Shown here piece by piece: positions 15-48,268 of a stretch of DNA of 64,000 nt. The stretch is from Candidatus Limnocylindrales bacterium (GTDB lineage: Bacteria; Chloroflexota; Limnocylindria; Limnocylindrales; CSP1-4): positions 18,461-82,460 of the forward strand of contig JBBRSJ010000007.1 in NCBI GenBank assembly GCA_038245515.1, written 5' to 3'. The notes below the pieces were generated by a model. That model saw only the letters and a list, made by a program, of their open reading frames with translations, searched no databases and was not told the DNA's origin. The stretch's first letter is position 1; every line of letters begins with the position of its first letter. The position numbers and the translations under genes were made by a program.

Positions 15-860
15 GTGACGTTCGTCCCGGACGTGACCGGCGCCGTGCGCGGCCCGCTCGTCCCAACCGATGAGGAGCCGGCGATCGAGGTCGAGAACCT
101 CGGGGTCCGCTACGACCTGCGGCTGACCCGGCGGACGACGATCAAGGGCTCGCTGTCGGGGATGTTCCGCGAGAAGCCGGCGGCCTCGACCCACTTCTGG
201 GCGCTCCGCCACCTGAGCTTCAAGGTCGCCCACGGCGAGTCGCTCGCGGTCCTCGGCCCGAACGGCGCTGGCAAGAGCACGCTCCTCCTGGCGCTGGCAG
301 GCATCCTCGACCCGTCCGAGGGCCTCGTCGACGTCCACGGCAGCGTCTCGACCTTGCTGACGCTCGGCGCCGGTTTCGAGATGGAGCTGACCGGTCGCGA
401 CAACATCGACCTCGCCGCGGCCTTCCTCGGGATCGACCATCGGCTGATGGCCGATCTGACGCCCGAAATCATCGCCTTCGCCGACATCGGCGCCTTCATC
501 GACGCGCCGGTGAAGACCTACTCGACCGGCATGCGGGCTCGCCTCGGGTTCGCGATCGCGACCTCGGTCACCCCCGACATCCTCCTCCTCGACGAGGTCC
601 TCGGGACGGGCGACCAGATCTTCCGGAATAAGAGCCAGAAGCGGATCCACGACCTCATGGATGGGGCGAAGGCGATCATCCTCGTGACCCACGATCTCAA
701 CACGGTCGCGGAGTACTGCAACCGGGCGATCCTCATCGAGCAGGGCACCTTGATCCACGTGGGGTCACCCCAGGAGACCGTGGACGTCTACCGCCATCGG
801 GCCGAGGAGCGGAAGCTGCTCGCCGATCAGGCCGGCGGCCGCTTCACCGGCGACGAGTAG
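15..860 (+). CDS. ABC transporter ATP-binding protein, polysaccharide/teichoic acid export (Wzt/TagH-like)
   Basis: Walker A GPNGAGKST, Wzt-type signature YSTGMRARLGFA, Walker B LLLDE, FWAL motif; no C-terminal carbohydrate-binding module. Confidence 0.9.
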   Translation: MTFVPDVTGAVRGPLVPTDEEPAIEVENLGVRYDLRLTRRTTIKGSLSGMFREKPAASTHFWALRHLSFKVAHGESLAVLGPNGAGKSTLLLALAGILDPSEGLVDVHGSVSTLLTLGAGFEMELTGRDNIDLAAAFLGIDHRLMADLTPEIIAFADIGAFIDAPVKTYSTGMRARLGFAIATSVTPDILLLDEVLGTGDQIFRNKSQKRIHDLMDGAKAIILVTHDLNTVAEYCNRAILIEQGTLIHVGSPQETVDVYRHRAEERKLLADQAGGRFTGDE

Positions 861-45822: not shown

Positions 45823-45834
45823 GGGAGCGGCGTA

Positions 45835-45886
45835 TTCGGTTGTTCTTCAGTTGTTGGACGCGTCTTCGATTGTTCTTCGGTTGTCT
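45835..45886. repeat. 11-bp-period direct repeats (TTCRRTTGTTC), two 22-mers 30 bp apart
   Basis: ttcggttgttc-ttcagttgttg and ttcgattgttc-ttcggttgtct; same unit recurs at 47318-47350. Confidence 0.8.
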
Positions 45887-46336: not shown

Positions 46337-47230
46337 ATGACCTATTCGATCGTGGCGCGCGACCCGGCGAGCGGTCGGTTCGGGATCGCGATCCAGACTT
46401 GCTGGCCGTTCGTCGGTGCGGGGTGCCCGTGGGTCGAATCCGGGGTCGGCGCAGTCGTGACCCAGTCGTTCACGGAGGTCGCCCACGGCCCGAACGGGCT
46501 CGAGCTGCTGCGCAGCGGCACGCCGGCGGCCGACGCGCTCGCGACGCTCCTGGCCACGGACCCGGGGGCTGCCGTCCGCCAGGTCGGGATCGTCGACGCC
46601 GCGGGGCGATCCGCCGCCCACACCGGAGATCGCTGCGTCGAGGCGGCCGGGCACGTCACGGCGGACGGCGTGTCGATCCAGGCCAACATGATGGAACGGG
46701 CGGCGGTCTGGCCGGCGATGCTCGCGGCGTGGCAGGCCAGCGCCGCCGCCGACCTCGTCGATCGGCTGTTCGCGGCGCTCCGGGCGGCCGAAGGCGAGGG
46801 CGGCGACATCCGCGGTCGCCAGTCCGCGGTGCTGATCGTCTCGGGGGCGCCCGGCGACCCTCCGTGGAAGCGGGACGTGGATCTCCGGGTCGACGACCAT
46901 TCCGCCCCGCTCGACGAGCTCGAACGGCTCATCCGGCTCCATCGCGGCTTCGAAGCGCTCGATCTGGCCGAGGAGCGCGGCCGCACCGGCGATCTCGACG
47001 GGGCGCAAGCAGCCGGCGCGGAGGCGACCCGGCTCGCGCCCGGCGACGGCCAGGTCCTGGTGTGGCAGGCGCTCGAGATGACCGCCGCGGGCCTGATCGA
47101 GCCGGCCCGCGAGCTGCTCGCCAGCGCGACCGCGCAGAACCCGCGCTGGCCCGAGTTCGTCCGGCGGTTCGCGGCATCCGGCGCCCAGCCGGAGCTCGTC
47201 GATCCGGCACGGACGCTCGTTGGCGACTGA
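46337..47230 (+). CDS. DUF1028 domain protein (Ntn-hydrolase-like) with TPR-like C-terminus
   Basis: MTYSIVARD start, RQVGIVD, AAHTG, GGDIRGRQSA, DLRVDDH; AAGGAG RBS. Confidence 0.9.
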   Translation: MTYSIVARDPASGRFGIAIQTCWPFVGAGCPWVESGVGAVVTQSFTEVAHGPNGLELLRSGTPAADALATLLATDPGAAVRQVGIVDAAGRSAAHTGDRCVEAAGHVTADGVSIQANMMERAAVWPAMLAAWQASAAADLVDRLFAALRAAEGEGGDIRGRQSAVLIVSGAPGDPPWKRDVDLRVDDHSAPLDELERLIRLHRGFEALDLAEERGRTGDLDGAQAAGAEATRLAPGDGQVLVWQALEMTAAGLIEPARELLASATAQNPRWPEFVRRFAASGAQPELVDPARTLVGD

Positions 47231-47317
47231 GACAAACCGGCCGCTGAGCGCCGGAACGCCAAACGACCGTAGGCGGTGGGGCACCACCGGCTCCGGTCGC
47301 AGGCTGCTGCAACGCTC

Positions 47318-47350
47318 TTCGATTGTTCCTCGGTTGTTCTTCAGTTGGTC
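47318..47350. repeat. Three tandem 11-bp units TTCGATTGTTC-CTCGGTTGTTC-TTCAGTTGGTC
   Basis: Seen directly; near-identical to the units at 45835-45886. Confidence 0.8.
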
Positions 47351-47420
47351 GGGGGGCGACGACGCACGCCCTGCGAGGGGCGATATCCCTAGGTTGGGCC
47401 GCGCGCTTCCAGCGAACCAC

Positions 47421-47617
47421 CGTCATTCGCCGCGAACGGCGTATGGCGAATGACGTAGACGGAGTCCAGACGGCGGAAACGCCGAACCGGCGCCGGTTTG
47501 GAGGAGACGGCGCCGCTTCGGCTTGGAGTGGCGACGACCGAAGGGAGGAGGAGGGAGGCCAGCGGTCGTCGCCGCGATTCAGTTTTCGATGACCGCCCGG
47601 GAGAGGCGGCTGGAGGT
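47421..47617. ncRNA. Candidate multi-hairpin sRNA with CCUCC-rich (minus) or GGAGG-rich (plus) loops
   Basis: Stems at 47421-47455, 47471-47484, 47488-47515, 47530-47573, 47593-47609; minus-strand loops include CCUCCCUCCUCCUCCC, UCUCCUCC, UCUCCC. Confidence 0.5.
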
Positions 47618-47740
47618 TCAGCGGGTGCGACTGGCCCGGGTGCGGGGTCGCGGCCGCCGCGGTCCGCCGAGCTTGAGCGCGGCGAGATCCAGGACGATCA
47701 GCGTTCCCAGAGACACGAGAAGGGTCCCGAGCGGGTCCAT
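47618..47740 (-). CDS. Microprotein (40 aa): single TM helix plus Arg-rich tail; absent from ORF track
   Basis: MDPLGTLLVSLGTLIVLDLAALKLGGPRRPRPRTRASRTR*; alternative in-frame ATG at 47764. Confidence 0.6.
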   Translation of the reverse strand: MDPLGTLLVSLGTLIVLDLAALKLGGPRRPRPRTRASRTR

Positions 47741-47932
47741 TTCGGTCCATCCATTGGTGGCCATCGGCAAGCGCCGTGTCGAAAGAGTGCGCGTCGTCCC
47801 GTTGCGTCGCCATCGTCCGAAGGTCGGGGATGGGGTGCGACGGATGACGTATTGCTCGCAGCTTCGACGTTTGATCGGGCTGGCCGTGACTCCCGCGTCG
47901 CGGGCGCGGCGGGCTGCGTTCTGATCCGCTCG

Positions 47933-48268
47933 TCAGCCGGCGTCGATCGGTCGGATCGCGAAGATCGGTCCGCTGCCGAGGCCCTCCGACGGGGTCCCGA
48001 AGCGAAGGATCAGCTCCCGAACGGCACGTCCCCGGCGCGGGTCGCGGTCGTCGAGGAGCTGGGCCTCACCGCGGAAGGCGCGGCTGAAGAGCTCGACGTC
48101 CACCGCCGGATCGGCGAGCAGATTCCGGCTCCACGCGCTGTTGGGTCCACCGGCGGCGACCAGGATCGACCCGTCGGGCTCCTCGACATAGCCGACGGTG
48201 ACCGCGCGCCACTCGCCACTGTGCCGGCCGCGGGTCCGAAGGCGCGCGAATCGCGTGTCGTCGGCCAT
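47933..48268 (-). CDS. Deazaflavin (F420)-dependent nitroreductase family protein (Ddn-like)
   Basis: LRTRGRHSGEWR, SAWSRNLLADP; start uncertain. Confidence 0.8.
   Translation of the reverse strand: MADDTRFARLRTRGRHSGEWRAVTVGYVEEPDGSILVAAGGPNSAWSRNLLADPAVDVELFSRAFRGEAQLLDDRDPRRGRAVRELILRFGTPSEGLGSGPIFAIRPIDAG

Follow-up and report, generated by a model that had tools for sequence, protein, structure and literature searches.

The stretch of DNA analysed here (the window) comprises 64,000 nucleotides of one contig of a Candidatus Limnocylindrales genome, a window position being the position on contig C7 minus 18460. A gap of 700 nt in it, flanked by a DUF1028 gene (plus strand) and a convergent F420H2-quinone-reductase-like gene (minus strand), contains a series of hairpins, and the question that it raises is whether these belong to an RNA, on which strand such an RNA would lie, and what it would do. 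An earlier note had placed five stems directly behind the stop codon of a 40-aa open reading frame, and all five were present in the minus-strand sequence. The reading frame, encoding the microprotein MDPLGTLLVSLGTLIVLDLAALKLGGPRRPRPRTRASRTR, occupies 47618..47740 (minus) with its ATG at 47740 and its stop codon at 47620-47618. Just past the stop codon lies HP1 (47593..47609, minus; stem CCGCC/GGCGG, loop UCUCCCG), followed by a single-stranded A/U-rich motif, AAAACUGAAUCG (47575..47586, minus; CAACYGAAUA in the family consensus), and by HP2 (47530..47573, minus; 44 nt), in which an 11-bp stem GGCGACGACCG/CGGUCGUCGCC closes a 22-nt loop CUGGCCUCCCUCCUCCUCCCUU. The terminator-like HP3 (47481..47522, minus; 42 nt) has a GC-rich stem GCCGAAGCGGCGCCG/CGGCGCCGGUUCGGC with a 12-nt loop UCUCCUCCAAAC, its inner 8-bp stem being nested in a longer stem of 15 positions. 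A trivial small stem on the same strand lies between HP3 and HP4 (47421..47455, minus), which is an 11-bp inverted repeat CGUCAUUCGCC/GGCGAAUGACG. The minus strand (226 nt) folded at -103.6 kcal/mol (z = -5.26) and none of 200 shuffled sequences folded as well, the plus-strand fold being less distinct (z = -3.77).

BLAST of positions 47400-47800 recovered the locus in 22 of 24 genomes of the same genus, and among the relatives only HP2, HP3 and the single-stranded motif before HP2 were conserved, together forming an RNA of about 110 nt. When 20 same-genus cores were aligned with MAFFT, an alignment not fitted to structure, 87.6% of the cells were paired in the two-helix structure and 13 of the 24 pairs changed on both sides, with 8 of the 11 pairs of HP2 being compensatory; none of 500 shuffles scored as high and structures slid along the alignment reached 29-62%. 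Both helices were recovered independently from these 20 cores by RNAalifold. A covariance model built from the 20 same-genus copies (R1), a check that the earlier note had proposed, matched the window at 47477..47585 on the minus strand (93.9 bits, E = 4.2e-28), which delimits the conserved core. In an alignment of 57 copies to R1, where pair counts lean towards the structure since the alignment is fitted to the model, 91.1% of the cells were paired, 20 of 24 pairs were compensatory and the covariation score was 0.374 versus 0.114 after shuffling. All 11 pairs of HP2 were compensatory in these 57 copies, with 81% of cells paired, and for HP3 the corresponding values were 9 of 13 pairs and 98.8% of cells, the sequence of the HP3 stem being nearly fixed among copies. 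The GAAU of the single-stranded motif was invariant or nearly so in both alignments. Minimum-energy folds of 115 distinct copies gave two hairpins in 103 and three in 12.

The tandem hairpins had been regarded as one RNA, and this holds for HP2 and HP3 but not for HP1 and HP4, which lie outside the conserved part. Most same-genus copies have a hairpin in the place of HP1, but its stem and loop sequences are unrelated from copy to copy, and 5 of 20 copies lack it (the group G022, G004, G005, G009 and G012). HP4 is kept within the genus only, through the motif TACGTCATTCGNCGTA; it lies downstream of the window copy (copy A) in many same-genus loci, does not belong to the family core and is absent from the copies linked to gene X, the gene described below. 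The sequence TACGTCAT(T/C)CG was observed both in HP4 (47421-47455, minus) and at 47845-47858 (minus), about 110 nt upstream of the 40-aa reading frame, and a second genome of the genus (L025) has the same pair of sites. It may act as an operator or be associated with a promoter, the 8-mer TACGTCAT being uninformative alone since it is common in coding DNA (48 sites). Downstream of HP4, a further conserved element occupies 47225-47400 (minus), with a TANNNT-like box at about 47383-47391, then CAACUGAAGAACAACCGAGGAACAAUCGAAGAGCG and, at 47254-47237, a hairpin that resembles a terminator and has a U tail. Of 18 other same-genus genomes, 9 have the element in the corresponding place, and its SAH-riboswitch-like match reached 14 bits against a cut-off of 37.

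Every one of the 57 model-found copies contains CCUCCUCC, 36 of them two or more times, and the conservation of the loop motif, on which the earlier proposal hinged, was thus confirmed, the loops keeping CCUCCUCC while the stems drift. In the window copy the HP2 loop contains CCUCCCUCCUCCUCCC, which includes the exact 9-mer CCUCCUCCC of the alphaproteobacterial cuckoo RNAs, and the HP3 loop holds CUCCUCC only. The exact 9-mer was present in 49 of the 57 model-found copies (twice in 16, once in 33) and absent from 8. Minimum-energy folds displayed CCUCC in both loops in 90 of the 115 distinct copies, a set on which counts for the HP3 loop are biased because 74 of the copies were gathered by a pattern requiring CCTCC in that loop. 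Given that CCTCCTCC occurs only 365 times on both strands of the 3.25-Mb assembly, two loop copies in one 110-nt stretch are not an effect of composition. The 3' end of the 16S rRNA in a genome of the same genus reads GGAUCACCUCCUUUCU and the loops therefore copy the anti-Shine-Dalgarno (anti-SD) sequence, in agreement with what had been read from the pyrimidine loops.

R1 matched in 112 of 151 genomes of the family (58 of 81 high-quality genomes), representing 38 of 49 genera, so the structure is conserved far beyond the genus, and with 1-4 matches per genome the RNA is multi-copy. These tallies, those of the class sample below and that of gene X include the unpublished genomes G120, G177 and G233, which are excluded from the alignments. 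A phylum-wide sample contributed 147 genomes from other families, none of which R1 matched at E<=1e-4. Matches outside the family in a sample of the class were weak (18-32 bits) and were rejected as members, six of the seven inspected being mostly GC-rich terminator hairpins without CCUCC loops; one weak match outside the family (L198) has a CCUCCUCC loop and was not counted as a member. A pattern scan with one genome per species returned at least 120 stretches, and the carriers were almost all Chloroflexota MAGs assigned to Candidatus Limnocylindrales or Limnocylindria, which indicates that the host is not an actinobacterium. Among 80 of the pattern-scan loci, 77 matched R1 at 34 bits or more. 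An Embleya locus matched at HP3 only, a Gemmatimonadaceae locus matched weakly (26 bits), and an Actinacidiphila locus gave no R1 match at E<=1e-6. The 77 include full-length, high-scoring copies (51-104 bits) on MAG contigs labelled Verrucomicrobiia (L097, L136) and Saccharimonadales (L082), one of them with gene X, and these contigs are probably mis-binned Limnocylindria.

A gene ending just upstream on the same strand was recognisable in 103 of the 115 distinct copies. The upstream context was gene X in 71, a variant of gene X in 7, the 40-aa reading frame in 25, a structured element in 8, and other or unclear in 4. Gene X (e.g. L046:1236-1487, and 67 other loci) encodes about 85 aa with the core TYRxLLxRGLAPDEAANLTAF..GI.VG...W.L.QVNQLLFLRE..R.GRFG and was found in 71 of the 151 family genomes. 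An R1 match lay at most 250 nt downstream on the same strand for 64 of the 69 best gene X matches (one pair coming from an unpublished genome), and the gene X stop codon was located -3 to 55 nt from the CAACYGAAUA motif. The gene X product is not hydrophobic, and basic segments are found in the small proteins upstream of the RNA. Its AlphaFold model (mean pLDDT 72) consists of three to four helices and gave no Foldseek match in the PDB at E<=0.001 and no recognised RNA-binding fold. No Pfam or NCBIfam family was found for either gene X or the 40-aa reading frame, the best match being SoPB_HTH at E = 0.028, below the cut-off.

The product of the 40-aa reading frame has the look of a membrane peptide, with one hydrophobic helix and an Arg/Pro-rich tail, and an SD-like GGAUGGA precedes its ATG by 5-11 nt. 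By tblastn it was found at 20 same-genus loci with 67-100% identity and the same length, single-copy and syntenic, and pairwise differences at the three codon positions among 16 full-length copies were 0.204/0.080/0.281, which is the pattern of a translated gene. The microprotein gene postulated earlier is thus real, and the RNA lies directly behind it. By a six-frame search, 12 genomes of the 151 in the family have this reading frame (6 of 49 genera). It was directly upstream of an R1 match in the window's genus and, in other genera, in four genomes (G050, G164, G125 and G047). The main home of the RNA, and probably the older one, is gene X and not the 40-aa reading frame with which the earlier note had linked it. 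Both the 40-aa peptide gene and gene X emerge from this analysis as real conserved genes that are unannotated.

Both homes are found in the genome from which the window is taken, where gene X lies on contig C24:713-955 (minus) and a second copy of the RNA (copy B) follows it at about 505-678 (minus). An additional hairpin, which likewise displays CCUCCUCC, interrupts the HP3 of copy B, and because of this insertion the copy scored only 15.4 bits with R1; it was missed by nhmmer and found through gene X. A third home is a conserved element, CGCAAGUACC-NGG...CCN-GGUCAUCG, located approximately 40-130 nt upstream of the RNA (loci L049, L064, L069, L071, L077, L080, L120 and L146). The short stem between CGCAAGUACC and GGUCAUCG shows compensatory changes between genomes, and the element has no Rfam match.

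How the RNA would be made can be judged from its flanks. A scan of 47100-48100 found no sigma-70-like promoter, and no A/T-rich -10-like signal was seen in the 60 nt upstream of the CAACYGAAUA motif in 91 anchored copies, which argues for co-transcription with the upstream gene. The motif, the sole A/U-rich stretch in a context of 70% GC, stands just before a hairpin, and the mature RNA may begin or be processed there. The window's genome encodes RNase Y and RNase J, and RNase E/G and Hfq were not found in this assembly, which is 87% complete; chaperone-assisted pairing as in Proteobacteria can therefore not be assumed. At the other end the strong stem of HP3 is followed by a short U stretch, GUUUCC (47475-47480), for which a simple scan for consensus terminators made no call. 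Other copies end in GGGGUUUC, GAUUCU or CGUUUU, and the 12 nt after the HP3 stem hold 2-4 U in 99 of the 115 distinct copies. The possibility that HP3 is a generic repeated terminator was rejected, as only three other GCGGCGCC...GGCGCCGC hairpins are present in the assembly and none of them has a CUCC loop.

A version of the single-stranded motif, CAACUGAAKA, occurs elsewhere in the same genome, where it directly borders the 5' side of a SAM riboswitch (69.9 bits) and of a TPP riboswitch (65.5 bits), at C5:35217-35226 and C23:17727-17736 of the assembly (G000). In both leaders it lies 6-7 nt after a TANNNT box. Three further occurrences were observed in the leader of a membrane-protein reading frame at 45830-45885 of the window (minus). 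A role of the motif as a -10 box was discarded, as both riboswitch leaders carry it against or overlapping the aptamer, with TANNNT ahead of it. CAACUGAAKA looks like a lineage-specific signal of 5' leaders, and CAACYGAAUA may mark favoured 5' ends.

Taken with the loop sequences, these observations suggest a mode of action. The RNA would be transcribed from the minus strand as the last part of an mRNA for a small protein, would probably end at HP3 and would possibly be cut at its 5' side at the CAACYGAAUA motif. In the most likely mechanism, the one known for cuckoo/alpha-r14 and other C-rich-loop sRNAs, GGAGG-type sites for ribosome binding on other mRNAs, and extended GGAGGAGG sites best of all, would pair with the exposed loops, so that ribosomes could not load. 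By this analogy the RNA probably blocks translation of messages with strong ribosome-binding sites. In the window's genome, 71 sites with at least 9 nt of perfect complementarity to the two loops were located 2-17 nt before a start codon. The 20 best predicted sites (ATG start, at least 150 aa) preceded genes for 8 solute-binding proteins and 2 TOBE-domain reading frames, and the assembly holds about 21 main binding-protein genes in all (11 SBP_bac_1, about 7 SBP_bac_5 and 3 Peripla_BP_6). The extended GGAGGAGG sites mostly precede genes for substrate-binding proteins of ABC transporters. The best predicted targets are enriched in ABC-transporter binding-protein genes, an enrichment that is inseparable from the very strong SD sequences of such genes. 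We favour the interpretation that copy A belongs to an uncatalogued sRNA family of one Candidatus Limnocylindrales family that masks ribosome-binding sites, and action in trans on these sites is somewhat more likely than not.

The alternative that retains most weight, albeit an unlikely one in our judgement, is a purely cis-acting 3' UTR that would serve in termination or in protecting or tuning the mRNA of the upstream small protein, for instance through a fold-back onto the ribosome-binding site of that mRNA. The position of the RNA directly 3' of a same-strand gene, the terminator-like HP3 and the absence of a promoter signal before the RNA are all as expected from such a function, but the RNA follows three unrelated elements (gene X, the 40-aa reading frame and the structured non-coding element), which a self-contained module fits better, and its loops are constant while the rest drifts, a constancy that a terminator does not need. 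The SD region was also unpaired with the loops in the minimum-energy folds of six mRNAs of the 40-aa reading frame, although this is a weak test.

Less probable again is that the RNA serves as a decoy or platform for a protein binding C-rich loops, possibly the product of the upstream gene. A precedent is CcaF1, an Arg-rich protein of 71 aa that binds the CcsR RNAs of its own 3' UTR and affects their maturation (PMC8034643), and the tight linkage of the RNA to small proteins with basic segments is in line with this. Gene X, on the other hand, has no recognised RNA-binding fold, no PDB match at E<=0.001 and no Pfam or NCBIfam family, and the 40-aa product resembles a membrane peptide, and pairing between RNAs is the simpler account of the identity between the loops and the anti-SD sequence.

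Many type I toxins consist of one transmembrane helix and a charged tail, and the 40-aa product is shaped in the same way, which brings up a type I toxin-antitoxin-like arrangement in which translation of a hydrophobic toxin would be checked by the downstream hairpins or by an antisense RNA. This we regard as very improbable, given that the majority of RNA copies stand behind gene X, whose product is not hydrophobic, that no fold-back on the SD was seen in the folds and no conserved antisense feature was observed, and that the 40-aa reading frame is single-copy, syntenic and under purifying selection.

All of these explanations place the RNA on the minus strand, and the strand itself was examined from the alignments and from the genome. 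When read on the minus strand, the wobble cells of the same-genus alignment comprised 19 G-U versus 8 A-C. R1 matches in the sense direction scored 45-104 bits versus 21-32 bits for antisense ones, a difference favoured by construction as the model was built on the sense strand. The U-containing tail after HP3 also lies on the minus strand. The G-U cells and the orientation of the genes speak for the minus strand, as does the scarcity of CsrA: no match to PF02599 was found in the window's genome, and CsrA was present in 9 of 101 family genomes and in none of 4 of the window's genus. CsrA binds GGA-rich loops, and a functional plus strand acting through GGAGG-rich loops as a CsrA sponge, an alternative raised in the earlier note, or as a ribosome decoy is hardly credible even though the plus strand also folds well (z = -3.77), because CsrA is not found in the window's genome and is rare in a family in which 112 of 151 genomes have the RNA, because of the 19 G-U versus 8 A-C cells, and because the U-containing tail and the upstream genes belong to the minus strand. 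The region is almost certainly a conserved structured RNA of the minus strand.

The likeness to known RNA families had been noted early, and it does not extend to membership. Rfam 15 gave no match at gathering level in the window or in 14 other loci holding copies. The best models below threshold were the cuckoo models ar14, ar7 and CcsR1 (RF02344, RF02342 and RF02791), with 14.0 bits against a cut-off of 58.8, 16.0 against 60 and 13 against 65.3, and these scores were driven by the loop motif. The 6C RNA is a stand-alone gene and not a 3' UTR. A relationship with it (RF01066) found no support from the covariance model, which gave no match at E<=10 in 47200-47950 and none at E<=1 in the genome, a weak test since control genomes never reached the cut-off. 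The RNA is real, conserved and uncatalogued. Full-text literature searches for small RNAs of Limnocylindria, or for RNAs of this kind in Chloroflexota, returned no paper, and no regulatory small RNA seems so far to have been described for Limnocylindria. It would be a well-supported new RNA family, given its presence in more than 100 species, its strong covariation and its clear sequence signature.

Several systems offer comparisons. The 6C sRNA of Actinobacteria is likewise a small RNA with two hairpins and C-rich loops, which pair with G-rich stretches of mRNAs independently of a chaperone, as reported (PMC6486639), but the loops of the Limnocylindria RNA carry CCUCC repeats and not runs of C. 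Unpaired C/U-rich loop motifs that pair with the SD region are also found in AbcR1/2 of Alphaproteobacteria, the AbcR RNAs controlling ABC systems for nutrient uptake (PMC10746234, PMC4615179), and in RNAIII and the UCCC-loop sRNAs of Staphylococcus; their sequences and hosts are unrelated to the Limnocylindria RNA and the likeness carries no claim of homology.

The closest resemblance is to the cuckoo RNAs (alpha-r14/alpha-r7/CcsR1-4/NfeR1). The definition behind the cuckoo thermodynamic matcher asks for 2-4 hairpins next to each other, each 24-50 nt long with a loop of 9-27 nt, and allows no multiloop (PMC4615179), a geometry that HP2 (44 nt, 22-nt loop) and HP3 (42 nt, 12-nt loop) share. 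It also places CCUCCUCCC or a listed variant in every hairpin loop, and the same study reports cuckoo RNAs only in 78 alphaproteobacteria in a 2015 screen of 2,680 genomes (PMC4615179). The cuckoo/CcsR-like architecture recognised in the earlier note, with loop hairpins behind a small-protein gene, is borne out. Adjacent hairpins with variable stems and loops that mimic the anti-SD sequence (in cuckoo RNAs two to four, each with CCUCCUCCC), and several copies per genome in few conserved neighbourhoods, are common to both. The position behind a small-protein gene recalls the CcsR RNAs, which are cut from the 3' UTR of such a gene (PMC8034643). The prediction of ABC-transport mRNAs as targets recalls NfeR1, whose three anti-SD motifs act redundantly on translation initiation regions and whose predicted targets are mostly ABC-transport mRNAs, two of them confirmed (PMC10746234).

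Unlike the cuckoo RNAs, the Limnocylindria RNA is found in Chloroflexota and not in Alphaproteobacteria, has no CIN1 neighbourhood, follows upstream genes that are not DUF1127 and have no Pfam family, and shows a conserved CAACYGAAUA leader and a nearly fixed HP3 stem; the CcsR RNAs are acted on by RNase E and Hfq, neither of which was found in the window's genome. The different phylum, partner genes and nucleases point to convergence, which is most likely the origin of the likeness, and by analogy the RNA would work like a cuckoo RNA but is not a member of that family. A more far-reaching scenario, which we put forward tentatively and consider rather doubtful as a whole, is that a mobile two-hairpin anti-SD module evolved independently in uncultured soil Chloroflexota and settles in the tails of small-protein mRNAs (gene X and the 40-aa membrane peptide) and behind the third, non-coding element, would be released by an RNase Y-type cut at CAACYGAAUA, and would throttle nutrient-uptake genes with GGAGGAGG sites, the co-encoded small proteins being dedicated partners of the RNA as CcaF1 is for CcsR. 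If this were true, a small protein together with an anti-SD RNA would be a recurrent, convergent regulatory unit across phyla. If the simpler reading of an sRNA that masks ribosome-binding sites is true, a distant phylum of the Gram-positive type, whose RNA-decay machinery is different, evolved the anti-SD hairpin design of Alphaproteobacteria anew, with the design again tied to small-protein genes and, by prediction, to the mRNAs of ABC transporters.
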